NCBI GenBank assembly: GCA_964428395.1
Contig: CAYRYB010000001.1
Location: 139,971 to 203,970 of the forward strand
DNA length: 64,000 bases
Source: an uncultured Methanosarcinales archaeon
GTDB lineage: Archaea; Nanobdellota; Nanobdellia; Woesearchaeales; SKGA01
Direction of reading: 5' to 3'
Shown in pieces: positions 3,819 through 58,630 of the stretch. A program made the position numbers and the translations under genes. Position 1 is the first letter of the stretch. Each line of letters starts with the position of its first letter. Under the pieces are notes generated by a model. The model did not search any database and was not told the DNA's origin. It saw only the letters and a program-made list of their open reading frames with translations.

Positions 3819-6800
3819 ATGAGTAAAGGATTCGTTATCACCAGTCACTACACTATAGTAAAAGATGAGCCAGTCATTCATCTCTTTGGTCGATTGGAAG
3901 ATAGCAGGTCTTTTGAAGCAGAAGTTCGCATGCAACCATATTTCTTTATCAAAAAAGAAGATAAAATAAACGCTGAGAAGCTCATTAGTTTAAAAACAAA
4001 GGAAACAAAACTACAAACACTAGCTCACGAACCAGTGCTAAAAGTTATTGTTAAAAATCCTAAGGAAGTTCCAGAACTTCGAAAACTTTTAGAAGATGAA
4101 AATATTCCTTGTTTTGAAGCAGATATTCGTTTTACAAGGAGATTTTTTATTGATAAAAATATTTTTTCTGTCATTGAAATTAAAGGAAAAGAAAGTCCCA
4201 GTGTAAAAACGGATGTATTATTTAAAAACGCAGATATTATTGCAAGCAACTCAAAAGAGAAATTATCTTTTGCGCCCACCATGCTGTCATTTGATATAGA
4301 AACAAACAGTTCTGCCACAAAAATACTTTCCATCTCATTATATAATAAGAAAGTACAAGAAGTAATTGTTGTAGAAAATAAGAAAATTAAAAAAGGAAAG
4401 TTTTCAAACACAATAGTCGTTACCAATGAAAAAGAACTACTGACCACATTTGTTCAACGGGTAAACGAGATAGATCCAGACATTCTTGTTGGATGGAATG
4501 TTATTGATTTTGATCTAAAAGTACTTTTAGAAAGAGCAAAAAAACTTGGCGTTACCTTCTCGATAGGAAGAAGTGAGAAAGAAGTACGTCTTCGCTTACA
4601 ATCTTCTTTTTTTCGTGATTCTTCAGCACAATGTGATGGTCGCATCATTCTTGATGGTATCCAACTGCTAAAATCATCATTTATAAAGCTTGATGATTAT
4701 AAGTTAAATACTGCTGCAAAACATTTTCTTCATGACACTAAGCTTATTCAAAAAGATAATCGTGGCGACATTATTATGGATTTATACGAGACAAATCCAG
4801 AGAAGTTTATTCAGTACAATCTAAAAGATTCCATGCTCGTCTTTGAGATTCTTTTGAAATCGGGCGTTTTTGAATTAACATTGCAACGCTCTTTATTAAC
4901 AGGATTACACATGGATAATGTAAAAGCAAGCATTGCAAGTTTTGATTCGTTGTATCTTCGAGAACTAAGAAAAGAAGGGTATGTTGCACCAAGCACGCGA
5001 CCCACCGATAAAACAGAAGGATTAGGTGGCTATGTAATGACATCAAAGCCAGGATTATATAAGGGTGTTCTTGTTCTTGATTTTAAATCGTTGTATCCAT
5101 CCGTCATGAGAACATTTAATATTGATCCCTTAAGTTATCTTGGCACAACAACAGAACTTGATAAACAAAAAATTTCGTATAAGGACAAATCAAAATTTAT
5201 TGTCGCACCAAACAATGCCGTTTTTCTCAATAAAGAAGGCATTTTGCCCCGTTTATTAAAACGATTATGGGATGAACGAGAAAAAGCAAGAAGCGCAGGT
5301 AATGAGTTAGCGAGGTATGCTATTAAAATTCAAATGAATTCTATGTATGGTGTTCTTGCGAGCACAAATTCTCGATTTCATATTAGAAATCTTTCCAATG
5401 CAATAACATATTTTTGTCAGCATTTTATCAAGCTTACTGCAAAAGAAATTAAAAAACTTGGTTATGAAGTTGTATATGGAGATAGTGTTACCAAAGATAC
5501 TGAGATTATTGTAAAAGATGATAAAAACAATATTTCGTTTCTGCCTATTGCTCAACTATTCAAAAAAATAGATAAAAAAACAAGTGAGGGAAAACAATAT
5601 TCTTTTGTTGATAATCTTAAAACCTTAACTATTGATAACGATGGAAAGAGCGTATTTAAAAAAATAACGTATGTTATGCGTCATAAAACAAAAAAGAATA
5701 TGTATCGTGTTTTTTTCACGAACCATTGGTTTATTGATGTTACAGAAGATCACTCGTTAATAGGATATATCAATAAATCAAAAAAACCATTGGTAGAGAC
5801 TCCCAATAGATTAGTTAAAGTAAAACCTACTGAAATTGGAAAAGATATTAAAAGCATAATTTCTCTAAAAAACATTCCTCTAACTAAAACGAAGACCAAA
5901 AAGTATCCTAAAGAAGTGTATGAATTTATGGGATTTTTTGTTGGTAATGGAAGTTTTCAAAGAAATAAAACACAACAAAAAGCAAATAAAGAATATTATT
6001 TAGGTCTATCCACAGGAGAAGATAAACAAGAAGTCTTCTCAAAATTAATTAAACCTTTAATAAAGAAAGGATTCATTAAAGAGTATTGGTGGAGCACCAC
6101 TAAACAAGGAGACATCACCTTAAATGGATTAAAATTAGTTAAGATTATAGTCAAGAATTTTAAAGATGACAAAGGAAAGAAAAGCATACCGGAGTGGTTG
6201 CTTAAAGAAAGTAAAGAGAACATTTGTTCATTTCTAAGAGGACTTTTCTTGGCAAATGGAAAAGTTATGATAAAAAATAAATCACCAATAATAAAATATG
6301 CATCAATGTACAACGAACACATAAAAATAACACAAAAATTATTGTTCTTAGCAGGAGTTTCTCATTCAGTATTTAGAGAAAATAGTACGAATAAATTTAT
6401 AGATAATAAGAAAAAGAAAATTTACTCTACGGGCTCACACTCAAAAAATATAATTATAAAAGATAGAAATGCCTTTGTTAAAAACGTCGGATTTTTATTA
6501 AGTAAAAAGAATAAACGTGCAAAAATACGAACAAATTCCCTTAAAAAGAGAAGTATAAAAGATTTCGATTTTGACCTGCAATCGGTAACTAAAGTTAAAA
6601 AGATAACATACAATGATTTTGTATATGATATTGAAGTAGCTAACACACATAGGTTTTTCGCCAATAATGTTCTTGTTCATAATACAGACAGTGTTTTTGT
6701 AAACACAAATACAGATAATATTGCTGAAGCAAAAAGTATTGGCGAATCTTTGCAAGAGGGCATCAATCTCTTTCTTAAAGAAAACATCAAAAAAGAATAC

Positions 6801-7403
6801 GCTTGCAAAAGCATTCTTGAACTTGAGTTTGAAAAGTTATTCACACGTTTTTTCATGCCTACTGTTCGTGGCAGTACAAAAGAAGGTGCAAAAAAAAGAT
6901 ATGCAGGATTAAAATTAAAAAAAGATGACTCTGTTGTTTTAGATTTTACAGGTTTAGAATTTGTTCGTCGTGATTGGACTGCTGTTGCAAAAGAATTTCA
7001 ACTTAAACTACTTAAATTAGTTTTTGCCGATAAAGAAGTAAATGATTTTATAGTTTCGTTTACTAGAGATTTAAAAGAAGGAAAATATGATGATTTGCTC
7101 GTGTACAAAAAAGCTTTGCGAAAAGATCTCGCAGCCTACACAAAAACCACCCCTCCTCACGTAAAAGCAGCAAGACTTCTTGATGAAATTAAAGGAAATA
7201 TTATTTCTTATGTTATGACAGTTAATGGTCCACAACCAATAGAAAAAATAACAAGTCCTTTAGATTATAATCATTATGTTAAAAAACAAATAAAGCCTAT
7301 TGCAGATAGTGTTCTTCTATTAAAACATACATCATTTGATGAAGTAATAAAGGGAAGTAAGCAAGAAGGATTAAAAAAGTTTTTTAAAAAAAGCTCCCGC
7401 TAG
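3819..7403 (+). CDS. polB: family B DNA polymerase (PolB) interrupted by one intein
   Basis: Exonuclease motif FDIETN. Pol motifs LYPSVM, K..NS.YG. A split YGD/TDS motif (VVYGD-[intein]-TDSVFV). C-terminal KKRYAGL. Without the 400-aa intein the extein is about 794 aa, typical of archaeal PolB. Confidence 0.95.
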   Translation: MSKGFVITSHYTIVKDEPVIHLFGRLEDSRSFEAEVRMQPYFFIKKEDKINAEKLISLKTKETKLQTLAHEPVLKVIVKNPKEVPELRKLLEDENIPCFEADIRFTRRFFIDKNIFSVIEIKGKESPSVKTDVLFKNADIIASNSKEKLSFAPTMLSFDIETNSSATKILSISLYNKKVQEVIVVENKKIKKGKFSNTIVVTNEKELLTTFVQRVNEIDPDILVGWNVIDFDLKVLLERAKKLGVTFSIGRSEKEVRLRLQSSFFRDSSAQCDGRIILDGIQLLKSSFIKLDDYKLNTAAKHFLHDTKLIQKDNRGDIIMDLYETNPEKFIQYNLKDSMLVFEILLKSGVFELTLQRSLLTGLHMDNVKASIASFDSLYLRELRKEGYVAPSTRPTDKTEGLGGYVMTSKPGLYKGVLVLDFKSLYPSVMRTFNIDPLSYLGTTTELDKQKISYKDKSKFIVAPNNAVFLNKEGILPRLLKRLWDEREKARSAGNELARYAIKIQMNSMYGVLASTNSRFHIRNLSNAITYFCQHFIKLTAKEIKKLGYEVVYGDSVTKDTEIIVKDDKNNISFLPIAQLFKKIDKKTSEGKQYSFVDNLKTLTIDNDGKSVFKKITYVMRHKTKKNMYRVFFTNHWFIDVTEDHSLIGYINKSKKPLVETPNRLVKVKPTEIGKDIKSIISLKNIPLTKTKTKKYPKEVYEFMGFFVGNGSFQRNKTQQKANKEYYLGLSTGEDKQEVFSKLIKPLIKKGFIKEYWWSTTKQGDITLNGLKLVKIIVKNFKDDKGKKSIPEWLLKESKENICSFLRGLFLANGKVMIKNKSPIIKYASMYNEHIKITQKLLFLAGVSHSVFRENSTNKFIDNKKKKIYSTGSHSKNIIIKDRNAFVKNVGFLLSKKNKRAKIRTNSLKKRSIKDFDFDLQSVTKVKKITYNDFVYDIEVANTHRFFANNVLVHNTDSVFVNTNTDNIAEAKSIGESLQEGINLFLKENIKKEYACKSILELEFEKLFTRFFMPTVRGSTKEGAKKRYAGLKLKKDDSVVLDFTGLEFVRRDWTAVAKEFQLKLLKLVFADKEVNDFIVSFTRDLKEGKYDDLLVYKKALRKDLAAYTKTTPPHVKAARLLDEIKGNIISYVMTVNGPQPIEKITSPLDYNHYVKKQIKPIADSVLLLKHTSFDEVIKGSKQEGLKKFFKKSSR
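5484..6683 (+). mobile_element. intein (400 aa) with a LAGLIDADG homing endonuclease, inserted at the pol-c site (YGD|TDS) of PolB
   Basis: Begins with Ser (SVTKDTEII...) straight after YGD. Ends ...NNVLVHN and is followed by Thr (+1 nucleophile) of TDS. Two LAGLIDADG-like blocks are present: YEFMGFFVGNGSF and SFLRGLFLANGKV. Confidence 0.85.
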
Positions 7404-7437: not shown

Positions 7438-7590
7438 TTATGCTGTATCAAATCCACCTGGTTCAAGATTAAAAAGCATGTTGCCCAGTCGTTTTGATTG
7501 TTCTTCATCTAAAGATATTTCTTCTATTTGCCCTTCACCAAAGTCAAGTGTTAATTTAACCACGTCTGTTATTTGCACAGATATATGCAT
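7438..7590 (-). CDS. possible small ORF (50 aa, MHISVQITDVVKLTLDFGEGQIEEISLDEEQSKRLGNMLFNLEPGGFDTA), absent from the ORF track
   Basis: A 50-codon ATG..TAA ORF read manually from the minus strand between polB and repeat copy 1. No homology recognised. Confidence 0.2.
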   Translation of the reverse strand: MHISVQITDVVKLTLDFGEGQIEEISLDEEQSKRLGNMLFNLEPGGFDTA

Positions 7591-7650
7591 GTGAAGACAC
7601 CAGACTCTATTCTTGAAACTATAGTTTAAAAGTGTTGCGATACGGTTTTA

Positions 7651-7815
7651 AAATCATAAAAATCTGCAATGAGTGTCACACCCGCGCCCTAAAGGGACGG
7701 GGTATGACATGACACTCATAGTATCTGCAGATTTTTAGGATACCAAAAATTTCGATCTAAAGAACGGGGTATTAGACCCCAGAGAAAAAATCTCTGTCGA
7801 AATTTTTTAGTATAA
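7651..7815. repeat. copy 1 of a ~165-bp structured intergenic repeat (nested hairpins), between convergent genes
   Basis: Near-identical to 40148..40375 (which adds an insertion) and to 58462..58630. Contains the 10-bp stem atgagtgtca/tgacactcat, the stem aaatttcga/tcgaaattt, and inner stems acgggg...cccc and agaga...tctct. Confidence 0.85.
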
Positions 7816-28004: not shown

Positions 28005-28214
28005 ATGGAAGAGTTATTACCATTATTTCGAAGCAAATTAAAGGTTGCAATACTGGAAAGTCTCAAAGAAGATACTATGAGTCCTATTATGCTTGCAAAG
28101 AAACTAAAGAAACCACGTTCAAGCATTAGTAGAATCATCTTAGAATTGGAAGAATTAGGCTGGGTGAACACGAAGAGTGGTGAGAAAGTTCTAAAAAAGT
28201 TTATAGTTCAGTAA
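28005..28214 (+). CDS. small winged-helix (ArsR-like) transcriptional regulator
   Basis: 69 aa. LAKKLKKPRSSISRIILELEELGWVN is an HTH recognition helix followed by a wing. Confidence 0.5.
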   Translation: MEELLPLFRSKLKVAILESLKEDTMSPIMLAKKLKKPRSSISRIILELEELGWVNTKSGEKVLKKFIVQ

Positions 28215-28219
28215 CATCA

Positions 28220-29176
28220 CTATTTTAATTCTATTTTTGTCAGAATTTGATCAAAAATTGCAGAATATTTCTTAATATTCTCTCGCATTTTTTTGCAATT
28301 CTCAAAATTAAATTCAAAAGATCCATAGAATATTTTCCCACTATCATCAATAGTTTCAGACTTATGAGCCAATTCATTTCGAGGTGTTATTATTTCTGTA
28401 CAATATGATTCAAAACTAAATGGTGTAGTTAAACCGATTTTGTTTATTACAGTTTCAACCGCTTCACCTTTTTTATGAGTTCCAAAAATAAATTCATCAA
28501 TGAAACTGTTAAATGAACTCCCGGAATATTCTTTTTTCTCTTGTACTAGATCTTTTACGTATAAATTCAAATATTTTTTTAAATCTTTTAGTTTATTAAA
28601 AGACCAATCTACTGTCTTGGTTATTACTTCCTCAATAAAAAAATCAGGAGTCACTAATTCTTTTTCAATAGAGCGACGTAAGATTTTTTTCTTTTTATCA
28701 TCAAGATCAGACACTTCCGCCATAACCAATCCTCGCAAATTTTCAGGATCTTGAATTTTTTTTATAGTACTTAAAAATATTTGTTTAAACTTTTCTAAAA
28801 AGAAATGATCATCACGCTCAGAACAATAAACTCCATCAATTTGTCTTTCACTTATAAGTTTTCTAAGTTTTTCCTCATCAGTTTCTTGATTAGAATAAAA
28901 AAGAACATCGGTATAATGATTACCATCTCGGATGTCTTTTATTATATCAGCACCAGATTCATAATATCCTAAGTCAAAGTCCATTAAAATGATATTATAA
29001 TCACTATATGTTCCATGATCCTCATTAAATTCACTTTTCGTCGAGATTTTTATTATATCTGCATCATTCTCACAGATAAACCCTTCCAATTGAACAATTT
29101 TTACAACTTCTTCACTTAACTCTTCAACCCAGTCTGGATCATCATCAAACCACAGAATTCTATACCTTAACTTCAT
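28220..29176 (-). CDS. response-regulator receiver (REC) domain protein with C-terminal effector-like domain bearing an Rx4H (HEPN-like) motif
   Basis: REC signatures: beta1 RILWFDDDPD (acidic pair) and beta3 IILMDFDLG (phospho-acceptor Asp). The ~200-aa C-terminal domain contains ...ITPRNELAHK (R-N-x3-H). Its stop overlaps the start of the GHKL/HK gene. Confidence 0.6.
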   Translation of the reverse strand: MKLRYRILWFDDDPDWVEELSEEVVKIVQLEGFICENDADIIKISTKSEFNEDHGTYSDYNIILMDFDLGYYESGADIIKDIRDGNHYTDVLFYSNQETDEEKLRKLISERQIDGVYCSERDDHFFLEKFKQIFLSTIKKIQDPENLRGLVMAEVSDLDDKKKKILRRSIEKELVTPDFFIEEVITKTVDWSFNKLKDLKKYLNLYVKDLVQEKKEYSGSSFNSFIDEFIFGTHKKGEAVETVINKIGLTTPFSFESYCTEIITPRNELAHKSETIDDSGKIFYGSFEFNFENCKKMRENIKKYSAIFDQILTKIELK

Positions 29177-31692
29177 TCTTTTATCTCCATCAATAATTTA
29201 ATTCCTTTCTTTTCGCTTGAAACCGTTAACTTACCATTAAGATCTTTGACAATATTTTTTGAATCATATAATCCAAGACCTGATCCTCCTGTTGTAGATA
29301 TTCCTTGTTCAAATATTGTTGCTGGGTTTTTACTAAATCTTTTGGGCAAACCATCACCATCATCTTTTATTTCAACAATTAATGAAGAACCTTTTTTAGT
29401 AAATGAAAAGAATATTTTTTTAGCGTTCATCTTTCGAGCATTATCTAATATACAGTCAACCATGTATGCAATCTCGAACGGTTTAATACGTTTTTTGAAG
29501 GAAAATTCTTCATCTTGAATTGTATATATTTTTAATGTTGAGAGCTTATTCTTATGAATATTCTGCAAATACTGTTTGAAAAAATCCACTAAATTTACTT
29601 TTTTTCCATTAAGTTCTTCCGTTAATCCTCCTTGAATTGCAATATTCGCTATTGTAAATATTTGTTTATTAACTCGATTTAATTTCTTTGCTTTCTCTAT
29701 CACTCCGCCAGTTTCTGATTCTTTCAAAATTTTCTTTGTTAATAATTCAACTGTTTGAGATTTTGTTTTAATATAATGATAATATCGAACAAGTTGTTCC
29801 TTGCTCTGGTCTTGTATCGATTTCAAAAAAATGTTCTGAGTTTCTAATTCTTCTTTTTCTTCTTTACTTTTCTTCGCTTCTTCTTCGGCTTTTTTTGCTT
29901 TTGATTCCGCTTTCTTTTTCTCTTCTTCAGCTTTTTTACTTTTTTGTTCAGCTTGTTTAGCTTTCGATTCTGCTTTTTTTCTTTTTTCTTCTTCCCCTTT
30001 TGCCTTTCTAGTTAATAAAGCAATCGACTTTTTTATATTCGACATTCCTTTTGAAGTATTTGTATCAAGTTTTATGCCCTCATTTTCTATCTTGGAGATG
30101 AAGTTATTAATTTTTTCATGTTGCTCTTTTGCTAAACCTTTCATTAAGTCAGTATCTATTGTTAAATTAAGAATATCATTCTTATTAGATGTTATGAGAA
30201 TAACTTTACTGAGCTGAGATAATATTGTTAGTTCTCGTTCGGTTTGATCTCCTTTAAGAGATTCTCTTCTAGGGTCATAATCAAATATTCCTGCCTCAAC
30301 ACCTTTCAAATAAGGATCGTTTTTATCTTTGACTTTATCCCAATCAATAACATCAGAAACAAAGAGTTCTAACTTTCTTAAAACATAATAAAAAAATGAT
30401 TTTGTAAAATCAGTTCTACCAATTGCAGTTAATTGATCATACGATGGGTTTTTAACTAATCCTTCCCTATTTGAGACAATCGTAAATAGCTCATTCTTTG
30501 GATCAGTTATTTCTATTCTACCAATACAGTCTCGAGTTCCTAGATACCTTCTTTGACCTTGAGTTTTACGTATATCAAGACCTAGCCAATCATTTCCGAA
30601 ATCTCCAAATGGACTTAATCTAAAACCATTAATAAAAAGAAATATGGATCCAAATTCAACAGACCTATATCCCATCTGACGTTTAAAATATGCTTTGGCA
30701 TATTGGTTTAAGTAAGTTAAGTGTACTCTAATATTTTTTAATAAAGAAAACTTGTTCTTTTCTTTAAGATGAAAAACAACTCGATTCCTATCTTTTAGTG
30801 TTGTAGTTATATATTTTCCATCTTTAGAAATTTCACAAGTGATTTCTGAAACCCTAAATGCTAACGAATCAAATATTTTATTTTCTACAAGAGTTCTATT
30901 CAGATAATTGTATTCTTCAACATCATCTTTATCAGTTAAATCATAATCTTCTTTGCTCAGATCTTCAACACATAACGATATTTTAAATGAATTTTTTTGT
31001 ATACTTTGATTCGGATTAATTAACTTTTCCAAGTTTTTTTTTAAATCAATTAAAGGAGTATAATAATATTCATCTTGCGATAATTCAATCCATTCTCTTC
31101 TTAATCGACTAATCTCAAGTATTGTTCCTGCACTTTCAATTGTATACCCAATCTTTTTCTTTAATTCAGTTGGTGTTAACGAATCCATTAACTTGATTCC
31201 TACTTTTTGTATAACATCATTAACAGAATTCTTATTCTCGAAATCATTCCAGTTAATTTGCAAATGCCATATTTTTGAATCTTTTTTAGATTTAGTATAA
31301 AGATCTAAATACTCACCAAGCCGATCACAAGAAAATCTGCCTACTCCTTTCGCCCCTGCTTGTACTCGTCCAAACTTTTCTCTATCTTCTCTTTTTGAAG
31401 AATAAGCAATGTTAAGCCATTTTTCTTCAATGTCCTTTAAAGACATCCCTTCTCCTGAATCAACAATTAATATTTTAGAGGATGAATCAATTAGTTCATC
31501 CCTTACAGTCGAATTTGTATCAAAATTAATGTTCTTTTTCAGATTTCGAAAATGTATTTTTACTAATTTAGAACCAGCATCAAATGAATTTTTAATTAAT
31601 TCTTGAATAGCTACAAAATCATCGTTAATTAAATCCTGTCCAAGAACATTTTTTAAGTGTGCATTTGTTTTAAAGTGTAAAGTTTTAACCAT
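29173..31692 (-). CDS. 839-aa protein: N-terminal MORC/MutL-type GHKL ATPase + charged coiled-coil + C-terminal histidine-kinase module (putative HisKA_2-like H-box + HATPase_c)
   Basis: N-terminus ELIKNSFDAG (Bergerat N-box), VDSGEGM (G1) and GAKGVGRFS (G2). Middle KAKGEEEKRKKAESKAKQAEQKSKKAEEEKKKAESKAKK. C-terminus YYHYIKTKSQTVELL (putative phospho-His region), ILDNARK (N-box), DDGDGLP (G1) and GGSGLGL (G2). Confidence 0.7.
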   Translation of the reverse strand: MVKTLHFKTNAHLKNVLGQDLINDDFVAIQELIKNSFDAGSKLVKIHFRNLKKNINFDTNSTVRDELIDSSSKILIVDSGEGMSLKDIEEKWLNIAYSSKREDREKFGRVQAGAKGVGRFSCDRLGEYLDLYTKSKKDSKIWHLQINWNDFENKNSVNDVIQKVGIKLMDSLTPTELKKKIGYTIESAGTILEISRLRREWIELSQDEYYYTPLIDLKKNLEKLINPNQSIQKNSFKISLCVEDLSKEDYDLTDKDDVEEYNYLNRTLVENKIFDSLAFRVSEITCEISKDGKYITTTLKDRNRVVFHLKEKNKFSLLKNIRVHLTYLNQYAKAYFKRQMGYRSVEFGSIFLFINGFRLSPFGDFGNDWLGLDIRKTQGQRRYLGTRDCIGRIEITDPKNELFTIVSNREGLVKNPSYDQLTAIGRTDFTKSFFYYVLRKLELFVSDVIDWDKVKDKNDPYLKGVEAGIFDYDPRRESLKGDQTERELTILSQLSKVILITSNKNDILNLTIDTDLMKGLAKEQHEKINNFISKIENEGIKLDTNTSKGMSNIKKSIALLTRKAKGEEEKRKKAESKAKQAEQKSKKAEEEKKKAESKAKKAEEEAKKSKEEKEELETQNIFLKSIQDQSKEQLVRYYHYIKTKSQTVELLTKKILKESETGGVIEKAKKLNRVNKQIFTIANIAIQGGLTEELNGKKVNLVDFFKQYLQNIHKNKLSTLKIYTIQDEEFSFKKRIKPFEIAYMVDCILDNARKMNAKKIFFSFTKKGSSLIVEIKDDGDGLPKRFSKNPATIFEQGISTTGGSGLGLYDSKNIVKDLNGKLTVSSEKKGIKLLMEIKE

Positions 31693-32992
31693 TTAGACTC
31701 GCCTTTGAACAACAATTACAGTTTAGCTCTGTATTATTACTTTGAGTTATATTAGTAACTTCTCCCTTAATAGATGAGGGCGAGCTTCTTTTTAAATATT
31801 CTTTCAAAACAATGCCTAAAATCTCTCCAAATAGCGGAGGTATAGCATTTCCAATTTGAGTATACCTTGGCACTTCTAATTTTCTGTTTTTTCCACCCGT
31901 AGTGTATTTTCCCTTGAATTCAAAAGTATCGGGGAATGACTGAATTCTTGCATATTCTCGAACAGTTAAAATTCGAGGTTCTTCATAATGAATATAATCA
32001 TCAGGTAGAGTTGTTAAAGTTGGAGATGTCCCATTAGAATCTAAAGGAATTATGCAATGTTTCTTTAGATTAAACTTCTTCTTTAACTCGTCAGAAACAT
32101 TTGTATTTCTATTTGCCTTGCTTAATATGTATCTAAATCGTTTTATTGTTTCAGTTGAATGATTTGGAAAACGATGACTATCAGGATTTGAAGATCGAGA
32201 TAAACCTTTTTTCATCAATGATTGATATGAAGAATTTTTTTTACCATAGAGTCCTGCTTTGAATCGAGGATTGTCTGGAGAATTAATCAACCCATTAGAC
32301 TGAAACAAGTCTCCTATTGCATCCTTTACAGTTGTTTTGCGAGTAATAGGCAAACCTTTCTGCTTTAGAAATTCTTTCTTATATTGATAAATATTCTCAA
32401 ATATGTCTTGGGCTTTACCTTTTTTAGTTCCAATTATAATACATCTTTCCCTTCTTTGTGGTACGCCAAAATCAGAGAAATTTATGATTTTCCAATCAAC
32501 ATCATATCCAAACTCTTTCAATTTGTTAGTGACAATTTCAGAATAAGCAATTCCTCGAGAATTATTTTTTGTTTTAAATCCTATAGTGAACCCCTTAACA
32601 TTTTCAAAAACAATTACTTGAGGTTGTACTAATTCTACAAAAGTTAAATATAATCTCAGAAGAAGATTCCTAGTGTCAGACTCATTTCTACGACCTGCCA
32701 TTGAAAACCCTTGACATGGTGGTCCCCCCACCAGTAAAGTTACGTTTCCTCTTAACGAACGTAATTGATCTGATTTTTCATCTATTAATTCATTAATATC
32801 ATGATTTGACTTTTCCAACCAAGGCACCCATTTAAAGTGCTTTGTCTTATCAATTAAATTAAATTTTAATGTCTCGAAAGCTAAAGAATCTTTTTCAATT
32901 GCAAATAGTCCCTTCCAATTAGCATTATGAAGTCCTAATGAAATGCCTCCACAGCCTGCAAAAATATCTATATAGTTGAAACTAGACTTCAT
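31685..32992 (-). CDS. DNA (cytosine-5)-methyltransferase (Dcm family)
   Basis: Motif I IDIFAGCGGISLGL. Motif IV GGPPCQGFSMAG. Motif VI ENVKGF. Motif X QIGNAIPP. The start of the downstream GHKL/HK gene overlaps by 8 nt. Confidence 0.9.
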   Translation of the reverse strand: MKSSFNYIDIFAGCGGISLGLHNANWKGLFAIEKDSLAFETLKFNLIDKTKHFKWVPWLEKSNHDINELIDEKSDQLRSLRGNVTLLVGGPPCQGFSMAGRRNESDTRNLLLRLYLTFVELVQPQVIVFENVKGFTIGFKTKNNSRGIAYSEIVTNKLKEFGYDVDWKIINFSDFGVPQRRERCIIIGTKKGKAQDIFENIYQYKKEFLKQKGLPITRKTTVKDAIGDLFQSNGLINSPDNPRFKAGLYGKKNSSYQSLMKKGLSRSSNPDSHRFPNHSTETIKRFRYILSKANRNTNVSDELKKKFNLKKHCIIPLDSNGTSPTLTTLPDDYIHYEEPRILTVREYARIQSFPDTFEFKGKYTTGGKNRKLEVPRYTQIGNAIPPLFGEILGIVLKEYLKRSSPSSIKGEVTNITQSNNTELNCNCCSKASLNG

Positions 32993-33046
32993 GTTAACAC
33001 TTTAGACGAACCTGGTTATAAACTTTTCGTTTATAAATGGGTATTA

Positions 33047-33391
33047 TTAAGGATCTGTTTGAGATGTTTTTTTATAAGCATATACCCATGAAGCATCATT
33101 ATCTCCACCACCAGTGCCACCATCTGTTCCAATAGTTTCAATAAAATATTTTTCAATTTCACGTGCTTCTGTAGAGTTCATAGCTTCCCTGAAAGCATAC
33201 CATGCATTTTCTTTTTGTACTTTATGATCTCCAAAGAGTCTTTGCTCGATATTTTGCGTTATTCCTACATACCAACTAGATTTAGCTCCACCTTCCTTGT
33301 TGATATGAGCTAGTATTTCTTGTTTAATTTGTTCTTTTTCTTTTTTCATTTTAAACACTAGTAATAGATTGGTTAAGATATATTTAAACAC
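33047..33391 (-). CDS. small GIY-YIG superfamily (YhbQ/UPF0213-like) putative nuclease
   Basis: 114 aa. SWYVGITQNIEQRLFGDH matches the second half of the GIY-YIG signature (Y-x-G-x-T-x-N/D-x-x-x-R-x-x-x-H), with a downstream Glu. Confidence 0.45.
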   Translation of the reverse strand: MFKYILTNLLLVFKMKKEKEQIKQEILAHINKEGGAKSSWYVGITQNIEQRLFGDHKVQKENAWYAFREAMNSTEAREIEKYFIETIGTDGGTGGGDNDASWVYAYKKTSQTDP

Positions 33392-33481
33392 TCTGTGTTG
33401 ATGTCCAGTGAGGTATAGAAATTATTGAATTGCACTTATAAATCAGGATAAAAAACTAAAATTAAAGGCTCTCACGAGCCC

Positions 33482-37999: not shown

Positions 38000-40108
38000 A
38001 TGAAGAGGCGAGAGATAGTTTTTATACTCTGCATACTGCTTTTTTTAATTATTTCTCTATCAAGTTTTGCAGTAGCAGACACCACTCCTTATTCTTACGA
38101 ATCTTTAGTACTTATGCAAAACATTACTACTGGTTTACATATTATTCCCAATAAAACAACATACGATGTTTCCTACGTAGATATTAGACTTAACCTTGTA
38201 CCTGTGACAAGTTTTCGTCAAGAAGTTCTTTCTCAAAGTTTTTCACCAAAGCCAGAAGAAATAAAAAAAGATAGTATTTTATTTCACTGGCCAAATCCTC
38301 AAGAAACAAATCTTTTGTTAGAGAGTAGTTTTCGGGTAAAGACAAGTGACGATATTGTTCGTATAACAAAGAAAATTCCTTTTCCAGCAACCAACATATC
38401 TTTAGACCTTCAAAAATATTTGAAAGAAACAGAAAGTATTGATAGTAATGAAAAAATAAAACATACTGCATTCATGCTCGCTAACAATGTTGATGATTTG
38501 TTTGAACTAGAATTTAATTTTGCTGAATGGGTGAATAAAGAGATAACGTACAATCTTTCCAGTTTGACAAGTGAAGCAAATGAGCCTTCGTCATGGGTAT
38601 ATGATAATCGTTATGGGGTTTGTGATGAAATCACTAATTTATTTATTTCGTTTAATCGTGCAGTTGGTATTCCTGCTCGTTTTGTTTCAGGAATTGCATA
38701 TAGTGACGCTGTAAAAAACAAATGGGGTAATCATGGTTGGGCAGAAGTTTATTTTCCTACCATTGGTTGGGTGCCTTTTGATGTAACGTATGAAGAATAT
38801 GGATTTGTTGATGCAACACATATCGCTTTAACAAAAGGGATTGATGGAACAAGTTCATCAGTTCGATACGCCTCAAGAGGTCATGATTATGATTTTAATC
38901 CGTTGGCTCTTAATTTCTCAACAGAGATCATTGCAAAAGGAAGAGTGTCCGGTGAACGAACACAAACAACACTTGGTGTTCAAAAAAGCACTGTAGGGTT
39001 CGGATCATATAATCTGGTTATTGCAGATATCAGAAATGCCAGAGCTAGTTATGTTGTTGAAAAAGTAACCCTTGCAAAAACTGAAGGTTTGACTTTTTTT
39101 GATCCACTGCAAAAAATAATTTTTCTTGCGCCTAATGAAGAAAAAAAATTATATTGGTTGGTTCGGGTAAATGATACCTTAAGCAAAAATTATGTGTATA
39201 CATTTCCAATCTCAGCAATCCTTTCAAAAGGAACAGAATTAACAAGTTCTTTTCGAGTGGAGAAAAATCAGGAAGAATATTCTAAATTATATATGCAACA
39301 GTTTTTAGTTGATAATAAAGAGGGAAAAGAGATTGATATTGATTGTCAAGCAAAAGATGTTGCGCTCGTCAACGAAAAAATAAATGTGCAATGCACATTT
39401 GTTAAAGATAAATTTCCCATAACTCTTTGCCTTAACACTGTTTGCAAAGAAATAAAAAGTAAAGATGATATTGCTTCTTTGCCATTAGAATCAACACATG
39501 TTGGTGTGCACACAGTTATTGTTCATTCTGCTGATAATAAATATCAAACATTTGTAACCTATAAAGTAAGCGATATTGCTAAACTCGGTATTGATAAAAC
39601 AAATATTTCTCAAAACATTTCCTTTGATGAGCAAGCGCGTCTTAAAGTATATGTTAAGAAGATTTCTCTGGCCAATCCCATAAATGTTACTATCACCGTT
39701 TCTGATGGTCTAACAAGTGAATCATGGAATTTTTCAGAATTTGACGAAGATAAAGAATTTGACTTGCTTATTGATGGAAAAACGTTGGCAACAGGGAGAA
39801 ATACGTTTATCATTAGCGTAGACTACACAGATAATTTAGGTAAAGAACACAATATTAAGCAACCAGTGCAAATAAGTATGATTGCAAAGACAGGTTCTCA
39901 AAAATTACAAGGAGCAATAAATCGATTCTCTATTGAAATAAATAGAATGAGCCAAAGTATCAGTAAAGGTTTATTTGGCAGACAATACGAGCAATTTCAA
40001 CATTTCACTGTTCTCTTACTCACATTCATTGTTTTAGTTATTATTTCAAGTATCATAAAAAGTTTTGTACACATGATTAAAAGAAAGTTGCTTAAGAAAC
40101 TTGATTAA
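38000..40108 (+). CDS. secreted/membrane-anchored transglutaminase-like cysteine protease domain protein (702 aa)
   Basis: N-terminal signal/TM. Transglutaminase core GVCDEITNLFISFNRAVGIPARFVSG ... HGWAEVYF ... WVPFDVT (Cys-His-Asp triad). A C-terminal TM helix. Confidence 0.8.
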   Translation: MKRREIVFILCILLFLIISLSSFAVADTTPYSYESLVLMQNITTGLHIIPNKTTYDVSYVDIRLNLVPVTSFRQEVLSQSFSPKPEEIKKDSILFHWPNPQETNLLLESSFRVKTSDDIVRITKKIPFPATNISLDLQKYLKETESIDSNEKIKHTAFMLANNVDDLFELEFNFAEWVNKEITYNLSSLTSEANEPSSWVYDNRYGVCDEITNLFISFNRAVGIPARFVSGIAYSDAVKNKWGNHGWAEVYFPTIGWVPFDVTYEEYGFVDATHIALTKGIDGTSSSVRYASRGHDYDFNPLALNFSTEIIAKGRVSGERTQTTLGVQKSTVGFGSYNLVIADIRNARASYVVEKVTLAKTEGLTFFDPLQKIIFLAPNEEKKLYWLVRVNDTLSKNYVYTFPISAILSKGTELTSSFRVEKNQEEYSKLYMQQFLVDNKEGKEIDIDCQAKDVALVNEKINVQCTFVKDKFPITLCLNTVCKEIKSKDDIASLPLESTHVGVHTVIVHSADNKYQTFVTYKVSDIAKLGIDKTNISQNISFDEQARLKVYVKKISLANPINVTITVSDGLTSESWNFSEFDEDKEFDLLIDGKTLATGRNTFIISVDYTDNLGKEHNIKQPVQISMIAKTGSQKLQGAINRFSIEINRMSQSISKGLFGRQYEQFQHFTVLLLTFIVLVIISSIIKSFVHMIKRKLLKKLD

Positions 40109-40147: not shown

Positions 40148-40375
40148 AAAATCATAAAAATCTGCAATGAGTGTCACACCCGCGCCCTAAAGGGACGGGG
40201 TATGACATGACACTCATAGTATCTGCAGATTTTTAGGATACCAAAAATTTCGATCTAAAGAACGGGGTATTAGACCCCAGAGAAAACACTAAAAATTCTT
40301 CCAGAATTTTGGTGCACCAAAAAACAACAATGTTTTTCAGTGAATCTCTGTCGAAATTTTTTAGTATAAAAAAGA
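40148..40375. repeat. copy 2 of the structured repeat, carrying a ~58-bp insertion inside the innermost hairpin
   Basis: Identical to copy 1 except for an inserted segment near 40285-40343 (cactaaaaattcttccagaattttggtgcacc...). The insert itself contains the palindrome aaaattcttccagaatttt. Confidence 0.85.
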
Positions 40376-57925: not shown

Positions 57926-58363
57926 TTGACATTTGGAGTGATTATTGCTATAGTTGCAATCTTGTTAGGTCTTGGTGACGCTTATTTTATCTGGCGACTG
58001 TATCAACAATCAGCTAGTTCAGTAAGTCAAATGAAAGGCGCTGTGGGCGAGCTCTTAATGGACAATAAGCTTTATTCTGCTTTTGAAGAAAAAGATGTGG
58101 CAAAGAGTATTGAATCACTTGCTTTAGTGGTTTTTAAAAGGGTAAAAGAACGCTTTAAATTTAAAGCAGAGTCCTATGCAGAAATAGTCACCGAAATAGA
58201 TAAGTCTCGTGATGTTCCTGACCAAATAAGAGAGTTACTCATCGATTTTTTTAATGAAATGATTAAAATTACGTATAAAGATGATAATGAATTAAGTGCA
58301 GATCAAAAAGTTGATTTAAGAAAAAAAATCAAGGTTATTCTTAAAGCAGTACAACACATTTAA
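57926..58363 (+). CDS. small hypothetical protein with N-terminal TM helix
   Basis: 145 aa. Last gene in the MoxR operon direction. Confidence 0.45.
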   Translation: MTFGVIIAIVAILLGLGDAYFIWRLYQQSASSVSQMKGAVGELLMDNKLYSAFEEKDVAKSIESLALVVFKRVKERFKFKAESYAEIVTEIDKSRDVPDQIRELLIDFFNEMIKITYKDDNELSADQKVDLRKKIKVILKAVQHI

Positions 58364-58461: not shown

Positions 58462-58630
58462 AAAATCATAAAAATCTGCAATGAGTGTCAAACCCGAGCC
58501 CTAAAGGGACGGGGTATGACGTGACACTCATAGTATCTGCAGATTTTTAGGATACCAAAAATTTCGATCTAAAGAACGGGGTATTAGACCCCAGAGAAAA
58601 AATCTCTGTCGAAATTTTTTAGTATAAAAG
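58462..58630. repeat. copy 3 of the structured repeat (about 3 substitutions versus copy 1)
   Basis: gtcaAacccgAgccc and tgacGtgacac replace gtcaCacccgCgccc and tgacAtgacac; otherwise identical. Again lies between convergent stop codons (58363 and 58661). Confidence 0.85.

Follow-up and report, generated by a model that had tools for sequence, protein, structure and literature searches.

We wanted to know what kind of element is the structured repeat that occurs three times in the spacers between genes of a 64,000-nt stretch of archaeal DNA, hereafter the window, meaning that stretch at its full length. The earlier note had reported three near-identical copies and had left three options: a MITE-like mobile element preferring terminator regions, a bidirectional transcription terminator or insulator, and a multi-copy small structured RNA gene. 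The source scaffold is ENA SONG20-1_SAMN10739806_METAG-scaffold_1 (214 kb), of which 81 kb, the 64-kb window included, were covered. The organism is a DPANN archaeon of the Woesearchaeota/Nanobdellota, as seen also in the names given to homologues of the neighbouring genes. The repeat unit reads on the plus strand of the window in all three copies, and the top strand of the element is the minus strand of the window. The copies are as follows.

7650 to 7815, minus strand (canonical, or top, strand): copy A, 166 bp, a length that takes in the TTAT target at its flank and as many as 3 T of ambiguous assignment on the right.
40148 to 40369, minus strand: copy B, 222 bp, the same as copy A except for a 56-bp insert.
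58462 to 58627, minus strand: copy C, 166 bp, with 3 substitutions relative to copy A.

The near-identity of the three copies was upheld. A script comparison found 0 substitutions between A and B once the 56-bp insert of B was removed, and the three substitutions of C, at element positions 30, 36 and 60, all fall in the right-end (RE) domain, where one disrupts a C-G pair and the other two are at unpaired positions. A 24-mer of the unit occurred 3 times in the window against 0.00 expected from shuffles, and a repeat scan ranked the family as the longest repeat of the window. In the Logan assembly of the same run, which is independent, the contigs holding site A (L002) and site C (L005) stop 28-30 nt into the element, indicating that the junctions are real and that the element is multi-copy in the reads. 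Repeats of this element interrupt short-read assemblies of the organism. No further copies were found in the extra 17 kb of scaffold on either side of the window, and blastn of the unit against phage and plasmid collections gave no match. The exact 20-mer ACGGGGTATTAGACCCCAGA was absent from the GTDB species representatives and the JGI metagenomes, so that the source genome and close strains are not among these representatives and metagenomes.

The earlier note had placed the repeat always between convergent genes. This holds for copy B, flanked by genes ending at 40108 (plus strand) and 40378 (minus strand), and for copy C, flanked by genes at 58363 (plus strand) and 58661 (minus strand). It does not hold for copy A, because of a conserved ORF that had been missed and is now added to the local gene map.

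7438 to 7590, minus strand: conserved 50-aa ORF, outside the element, between polB and copy A, called in ENA and in relatives.

This ORF shares 66-80% identity with its counterparts in three relatives (L006, L008 and L009, by tblastn) and has no Pfam match. Since it lies between polB and the element, copy A is located between two co-directional genes, the radical-SAM gene and the 50-aa ORF. It lies 28 bp past the radical-SAM stop codon and about 10 bp upstream of a putative BRE/TATA of the 50-aa ORF, a conserved BRE/TATA-like block reading ..ATCGCAAC..TTTTAAAC... All three copies share one placement: each follows a minus-strand gene, 8-33 bp past its stop codon, and is always turned the same way with respect to it.

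The element is strongly structured. Folded as RNA, the plus strand reached -60.9 kcal/mol (z -7.8), and the minus strand gave a z of -8.2 as RNA and of -9.6 as DNA. All the stems named in the earlier note (atgagtgtca/tgacactcat, aaatttcga/tcgaaattt, acgggg..acccc and agaga..tctct) belong to the minimum-energy fold, and the T-runs that it described after the stems on both strands were borne out by direct reading of the sequence, as T5-T6. The internal parts are the following.

7657 to 7737, minus strand: RE composite hairpin of copy A, with outer stem AAAAATCTGCA/TGCAGATTTTT and middle stem ATGAGTGTCA/TGACACTCAT; it folds.
7680 to 7703, minus strand: apical imperfect palindrome of copy A, ACCCgCGCCC-TAAA-GGGaCGGGGT, with an extra-helical A; presumed TnpA-binding hairpin.
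40178 to 40201 (copy B) and 58492 to 58515 (copy C), minus strand: the same apical palindrome.
7745 to 7807, minus strand: left-end (LE) domain of copy A, with the hairpins GGGGT..ACCCC and AGAGA..TCTCT inside a long stem, AAAAATTTCGA/TCGAAATTTTT; it folds.
7753 to 7779, minus strand: LE-module homology of copy A, CGATCTAAAGAACGGGGTATTAGACCC, a decayed second palindrome followed by GGGGTATTAxACCC.
40251 to 40277 (copy B) and 58565 to 58591 (copy C): the same LE-module homology.
7812 to 7815 (copy A), 40366 to 40369 (copy B) and 58624 to 58627 (copy C), minus strand: ATAA (TTAT when the top strand is read), a conserved sequence bordering LE on its 5' side and presumed to be the target and left cleavage site.

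On the top strand, the conserved tip of RE is the imperfect palindrome ACCCCGTCCC-TTTA-GGGCGCGGGT, and 8 nt (ATGATTTT) separate the foot of the RE hairpin from the end of the element. Palindromes are thus present near both termini on one strand, the LE one being weak: in this genome its decay has been toward A/T, leaving CGTTC-TTTA-GATCG (one T.T mismatch) where related elements have CGCCC-TTCA-GGGCG, and it lies 42 nt from the target, versus 19 in related elements. No ORF of 30 aa or more was found within the element, its longest internal ORFs being of 21-26 aa.

A lead to the family came from a blastn match of the hairpin tip to another Woesearchaeote locus, L085. The search pattern GCCCNNAAGGGACGGGGTAT was built from the window element and the L085 sequence; it has 18 specified bases, and a chance match in the 64-kb window is expected at about 2e-6. 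This pattern matched at least 120 JGI metagenome loci and had no match in IMG/VR. Because it was taken from the window element, the match of the RE hairpin is by construction, and the independent evidence is the match of the left module, the geometry and the linkage to a transposase. Another blastn match, L003:14550-14617 (68% over 68 nt), was judged to be due to chance, being partly coding and devoid of the hairpin.

The matches inspected form several subfamilies with a shared plan, in which a variable flank is followed by (A)ATCA/ATGA, a short stem, the invariant tip CCCCGCCC-TRAA-GGGaCGGGG-TAT, the stem's return strand and a variable middle. Then come a second palindrome, CGCCC-TGAA-GGGCG, the sequence GGGGTATTAAACCC, and the end of the element, ..CGAAT(N)AA. 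Among the matches listed, about 60 loci are gene-less elements of 54-170 bp with this same two-module architecture, and some copies are only 54 bp long, the first hairpin being fused straight to the last 25 nt. The short gene-less forms are also present in bacterial contigs, one of which (L091) encodes a sigma-70 factor and Lgt. In 10 loci among the matches listed, the hairpin adjoins a gene for a Y1 transposase, as detected by tblastn.

L164, L187, L183, L148, L152, L133, L138, L096, L140 and L182: loci with the hairpin and a Y1 gene.

Two of these loci, L164 and L187, show the IS in full, and there the hairpin is located about 35 nt past the transposase stop codon, on the opposite strand. 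One subfamily is conserved over about 700 bp, and its opposite strand encodes a 157-aa protein. The L164 protein matched Pfam PF01797 (Y1_Tnp) with an E-value of 4.9e-37 and the NCBIfam model transpos_IS200 with 137 bits (cut-off 55), while the RAYT model REP_Tyr_transpos gave 30.9 bits (cut-off 80); judged by these profiles, the 157-aa protein is a Y1 transposase of the IS200 type. L164 and L187 carry the same IS of about 725 bp in different flanks, which fixes its ends (for example L164:1010-1735): it starts with ATCAAAC ahead of the hairpin, and a second hairpin, CCCCGACC-TGAA-GGTCGGGG-TAT, precedes the terminal ..GTAATAAA. The closest protein relatives of the linked TnpA are named from Methanothrix, Methanosarcina and Methanobacterium. 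An IS200-type element is also present in Woesearchaeota, at L066. No tnpA or tnpB was found in the 81 kb covered of the 214-kb scaffold, in searches that included Pfam on the window ORFs and tblastn.

Membership of the window element was then assessed with features outside the search pattern. For this, an HMM was made solely from the other-end modules of 55 short unrelated elements. When the whole window was searched with this LE profile by nhmmer, the best three matches were the three LE-module stretches listed above, inside the three copies and in the correct strand and order; each has an E-value of 0.045 and about 10 bits and is individually weak, and the E-value falls to a few in 100,000 when the search is limited to the roughly 100 nt where the LE module should lie. 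When the window copies were aligned with the L085 element and with three elements from bacteria, both conserved blocks were present. The geometry also agrees. In the short elements, the distance between hairpin foot and boundary is exactly 19 nt on the left and 9 nt on the right, and the corresponding spacings of IS608 are 19 nt and 10 nt (PMC3201880). In the window element, two extra stems lengthen the right hairpin, and its foot stands 8 nt away from the right boundary, against 9-10 nt in the family. Finally, the stems beside the invariant tip co-vary between subfamilies (CAACAA/GTTGTT, GAAGAA/CTTCGTT, GACGAA/CGTCGTT and GCGCGCGGCC/GGCCGCGCGC), the window variant being the 10-bp middle stem given above. 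The mean longest complementary run beside the tip was 5.03, versus 4.05 +/- 0.11 with shuffled partners, in a metric where the window copies are offset and not registered, their stem coming from the fold.

We then looked at the insertion sites. The spacer between the radical-SAM gene and the 50-aa ORF measures 80 bp in L006 and 72 bp in L008, the two relatives with an unchanged gene order, and 253 bp in this genome. Where the relatives read ..TTGTTTTAAAAGTC.., this genome reads ..TTAT, then the element, then TTTAAAACC..; in a longer minus-strand reading, the relatives have ..TTCTTGTTTTAAAAGTCTATCGCAAC.., and this genome has ..TTCTTATTAT, the element and TTTAAAACCGTATCGCAAC... L006 and L008 thus carry an empty site at A, which indicates that the element inserted there, the protein identity to the relatives compared being only 74-75%. 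A gene for a 394-aa membrane protein occupies this slot in two further relatives, so that the spacer at A is a variable spot. The 5-mers at the left flank are ATTAT (A), TTTAT (B) and TTTAT (C), which is supportive and not decisive with n=3 in an AT-rich genome. Elsewhere, TTNAT precedes TCG across the family and TTTAT precedes TAC in two copies of the full IS. The right terminus is ambiguous by 3-4 nt, the element ending either in ..ATGAT or in ..ATGATTTT; from the family boundary and the empty-site alignment, we favour ..ATGAT as the probable end. The orientation is uniform in the three copies over 51 kb (p = 0.25 by chance), and the GC-skew profile has no clear replication direction; three copies are too few for statistics on target or orientation preference.

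The earlier note had proposed terminal inverted repeats (TIR) and target-site duplications (TSD) as the mark of a plain MITE. Both were looked for and neither is present, and the test does not apply to the IS200/IS605 family, which has neither. No consistent direct repeat was found at the three copies, where A/T runs leave an ambiguity of up to 4 nt, and when site A is aligned with the empty site of L008, the flanks join up with nothing duplicated. Neither of the ends, AAAATCATAAAAATC and ..TTTTTTAGTATAA, is an inverted copy of the other, and their only likeness is a loose one between A/T-rich stem strands. The readings AAAA, AGAGT (copy B) and TA were rejected as TIR or TSD candidates, being inconsistent across copies. 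A classical cut-and-paste MITE moved by a DDE transposase is therefore scarcely credible. The outer strands of the basal stems are loosely alike when inverted (TCATAAAAATCTGCA vs ATACTAAAAAATTTCGA) and copies B and C can each be read with AAAA on either side, but this apparent TIR agrees at only about 11/15 positions and is the product of two A/T-rich stems that resemble each other, the supposed AAAA duplication breaks down at copy A (AAAA vs AATA) and is uninformative in intergenic DNA of 33% GC, and the homology to IS200/IS605 ends is specific. The mobile-element option thus stood as regards a non-autonomous mobile element in terminator regions, and fell as regards a classical MITE, the ends being of the IS200/IS605 type.

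PATEs are defined by the lack of TIR, palindromes near the termini, no target duplication and a length too short for a transposase (PMC3119063). With neither TIR nor TSD, TTAT at the left flank of the three copies, the LE match, the geometry and the co-variation, the window element fits this published definition. Altogether, we give a probability of roughly 0.86 to the repeat being a PATE, that is, a miniature, gene-less and non-autonomous derivative of an IS200/IS605 IS, of the IS200 (tnpA-only) type. The cognate tnpA is assumed to be elsewhere in this genome. Judged by the near-identity of copies in unrelated flanks and by the empty sites of relatives, the element is mobile and has recently spread. 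A second PATE of this family in Woesearchaeota is the L085 element (L085:9553-9716, nhmmer E 3.2e-5), and no family match beyond it was found in 1.27 Mb of relatives' loci.

The link to a Y1 enzyme could also be read in another way, namely that the repeat is a REP/BIME-like domesticated sequence kept by a single-copy RAYT and not a PATE of a mobile IS. We consider this very unlikely. An archaeal relative of the linked transposase, P0181, is named 'REP-associated tyrosine transposase' by NCBI, and REPs are hairpins related to IS200/IS605 ends and located at gene ends (PMC3333891). The linked transposase, however, scores 137 bits with the IS200 model versus 31 with the RAYT model, below the cut-off of 80, and it occurs with both ends in different contexts (L164 vs L187), like a mobile IS. 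Moreover, the element is 166 bp long with distinct left and right ends in direct orientation, versus a palindrome of 20-40 nt or an inverted doublet. REPs have a 5' motif of the GTAG type, and such a motif is not evident in the element. Integron attC sites were rejected too, despite AAC...GTT ends and an extra-helical base: the R'/R'' consensus is unmet, the elements have housekeeping genes as neighbours (L190), and the enzymes linked with them are Y1 transposases and not integron integrases.

The stable fold predicted for either strand is also what a multi-copy structured small-RNA gene, with its own promoter and acting in trans, would have. The minus-strand start, TTATACTAAAAAA, is by reading loosely like an archaeal TATA box, and PATEs of TnpB-bearing IS can carry guide-RNA scaffolds (PMC10055086). 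We nevertheless hold this reading to be highly improbable, and no positive evidence was found for it. At gathering thresholds, an Rfam 15 search of the window returned two tRNAs only, the initiator tRNA being of the archaeal type, and a search of 15 loci with related elements returned only tRNAs, none of them at the elements. The earlier note, which recognised no known RNA family in the repeat, was thus correct as far as Rfam goes; the lack of a match is likely due to the structure serving as single-stranded DNA. The best Rfam score was that of TD-1 at site A in a permissive scan (23.5 bits versus a cut-off of 64.5, E 0.11), and TD-1 was dropped, its consensus being unlike the family. The single substitution within a stem breaks its pair and is uncompensated. 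The autonomous IS to which the element is related carries tnpA alone, and neither TnpB nor IscB was found in the window or in the scaffold parts covered. Lastly, the conserved block begins and ends exactly at the transposon ends and is not bounded by a promoter and a terminator.

A third possibility is that the host has selected the repeat as a bidirectional terminator or insulator module at gene ends, its hairpins and T5-T6 stopping the archaeal RNA polymerase both ways. The position of all copies shortly after a minus-strand stop codon (two of the three between convergent genes) and the T5-T6 after the stems on both strands are in line with this, as is one terminator-like site in copy A, found by a scan with a bacterial-type consensus. 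Several observations nevertheless make this reading unlikely. The orthologous spacers of relatives are devoid of the element and have T-runs of their own, copy A stands before a promoter and not between convergent genes, and the near-identity of the copies reflects recent spread and not conserved function. Archaeal termination requires only oligo-T, and if oligo-T suffices, 166 bp of conserved structure is left unexplained, while homology of both ends to transposase-linked transposon ends fully accounts for it. The terminator or insulator option, as a primary role, is thus not needed and had no positive evidence. With a PATE, a terminator effect may be compatible only as a side effect.

If the repeat is a PATE, its movement can be sketched by analogy with IS608 and ISDra2. 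A TnpA (Y1/HUH) encoded elsewhere would bind both subterminal hairpins on the single-stranded top strand at the replication fork, and would cut 3' of the target pentanucleotide at LE and a few nt 3' of the RE hairpin. A single-stranded circle would be released and pasted 3' of another TTNAT, with no duplication and no inverted repeats. The copies seen would be those landing in harmless T-rich spacers at gene ends, where the modules of hairpin plus T-run may incidentally terminate transcription both ways. Mobilisation in trans, the single-strand mechanism and the exact cleavage positions, with about 4 nt of uncertainty at the right end, are what we infer from this analogy.

Copy B differs from copy A by its insert only.

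40287 to 40342, no strand assigned: 56-bp insert of copy B, in the loop of the AGAGA/TCTCT hairpin.

The insert consists of two small hairpins with inverted termini of 9-10 nt (CACTAAAAA../..TTTTTCAGTG) and is without duplication; no second copy of it was found in the window or in any locus compared. The AGAGA/TCTCT hairpin is self-contained, and this may be why copy B tolerates a structured insert of 56 bp in its loop. In Haloquadratum, small TIR-bearing repeats without target duplication have often integrated into PATEs (PMC3119063). The 56-bp insert resembles these small mobile repeats.

In the annotation, the candidate 'novel structured RNA' is thus replaced by a mobile element with defined ends, target and orientation. 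The element is ordinary selfish DNA: it represents no new class of RNA, and it is not a module dedicated to regulation. The genomes of DPANN archaea are small and generally regarded as poor in mobile elements; what we describe is transposition of the IS200/IS605 type, presumably through single strands and active or recently so, in a DPANN (Woesearchaeota) genome. The presumed TnpA-recognition hairpin is near-invariant across bacterial contigs, IS200 elements with methanogen-named relatives of their transposases, and Woesearchaeota, with co-varying stems around it. It can serve as a signature in searches for the family, and it hints at spread across domains. As an outside possibility, the copies may be more than selfish DNA and be kept as ready-made bidirectional terminators or insulators at gene ends in this reduced DPANN genome. 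The hairpin agrees nearly base for base with the one in IS200 elements that have transposases named from Methanothrix and Methanosarcina, and bacterial contigs have it too; on the same reading, the family may have come to the Woesearchaeote through recent transfer between lineages, perhaps from a methanogen partner.

How does the element compare with known systems? PATEs were first defined in Haloquadratum walsbyi (PMC3119063) and have also been noted in Geobacillus stearothermophilus (PMC10055086). The window element is like them in having no TIR, palindromes near both termini, no duplication, no transposase and ends shared with IS200/IS605-type elements. Unlike the Haloquadratum PATEs, it resides in a DPANN Woesearchaeote, belongs to an unrelated sequence family and has an apparently low copy number (3 in 81 kb). 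The Haloquadratum PATEs stem from elements of the IS605 type in that genome, most of them carrying tnpB; the autonomous relatives here are of the tnpA-only IS200 type. PATEs are thus an already known kind, of which this sequence family and its Woesearchaeote host are a new member.

With IS of the IS200 group (the paradigms IS608 and ISDra2, and the L164-type IS of about 725 bp), the element shares a subterminal imperfect palindrome with an extra-helical base. The likeness is closest to the L164-type IS, which has the same 20-nt hairpin, the TTTAT target 5' of LE and the RE terminus ..TGAT. The family as a whole is like IS608 in its spacings of 19 nt and 9-10 nt, its presumably strand-specific insertion and its lack of duplication, and differs in its target, a T-rich TTNAT here versus TTAC in IS608. 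The window element itself departs from the IS200 group in having no tnpA, hairpins extended by A/T-rich stems and a decayed LE palindrome at 42 nt from the target.

Like the bacterial REP/BIME-RAYT systems, the family consists of hairpin repeats at gene ends that are related to IS200/IS605 and, presumably, recognised as single-stranded DNA by a Y1 enzyme; unlike them, it is linked to an enzyme that agrees with the IS200 model and not with that of RAYT, and the element has an LE distinct from its RE and far exceeds a REP in length. The Correia, ERIC and RUP MITEs of bacteria, which act as terminators or RNA-processing sites, are likewise small structured intergenic repeats with possible incidental effects on the transcription of neighbours. 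They have TIRs and TSDs and are moved by DDE enzymes, whereas the element described here has neither TIR nor TSD.

The spacer that holds copy A of the 166-bp hairpin repeat, between the radical-SAM gene and a small ORF with polB beyond it, is a hot spot of gene-content change. In two relatives, this spacer is filled by a gene for a 394-aa multi-pass membrane (transporter-like) protein (L009:5128-6312 and L007:7157-7789). The window features referred to here are as follows.

3819-7403, plus strand: family-B DNA polymerase (polB), 1194 aa, with an intein (PF14890)
7438-7590, minus strand: conserved 50-aa ORF between the radical-SAM gene and polB
~28200-33400: block of low GC content (29%) and strongly negative GC skew
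40287-40342: 56-bp insert within a hairpin loop of copy B

The 50-aa ORF had been overlooked in the earlier note's gene map at copy A. It is 66-80% identical across three relatives, belongs to no Pfam family, and is preceded by a BRE/TATA-like block of its own. As for the neighboring polymerase, the window protein carries the intein, and its 791-aa ortholog in the relative L006 is without one.

The 56-bp insert of copy B is made up of two similar small hairpins and has inverted termini (CACTAAAAA/TTTTTCAGTG). No duplication was found at the insert, and no second copy was detected in the window or in any locus searched. Possibly it is a mini-element nested in copy B; alternatively, copies A and C may have lost what was an ancestral segment.

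Short-read assemblies of the window organism are fragmented by the repeat element: two Logan contigs of run SRR8443420 (L002 and L005) end 28-30 nt inside it. Elsewhere in the window, the low-GC block has the look of a defence or restriction-modification island, with genes for a C-5 cytosine DNA methylase, a small GIY-YIG protein and an HATPase_c_3 protein of 839 aa.

In JGI metagenomes, gene-less elements of 54-170 bp that share the hairpin CCCCGCCC-TRAA-GGGaCGGGG-TAT form a large, diverse set; among the matches listed (L089-L208), many come from the same few metagenomes. In some of the elements, optional GC-rich inserts occur in the loop of the second hairpin. Bacterial contigs are among the carriers, one of them (L091) encoding sigma-70 and Lgt, and in L190 tandem pairs flank glyA-like and folD-like genes, as identified by eye. 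An Rfam scan of 15 loci with related elements gave no family covering them.

Two elements were also found in other Woesearchaeota.

L085:9553-9716: 164-bp element of the window repeat's family, upstream of the host's radical-SAM gene
L066:11674-12108, minus strand: full IS200-type element beside the radical-SAM ortholog

The L085 host is a distant Woesearchaeote (radical-SAM protein 41% identical), and its element has the tip ACCCCCGCCCCGAAGGGACGGGGTAT and ends in ..CTCAATAAA. The IS200-type element of L066, from another Woesearchaeote, encodes a TnpA of 144 aa and carries the hairpins CGCAC-TTTA-GTGCG and CCCCACAC-TTTA-GTGTGGGG.
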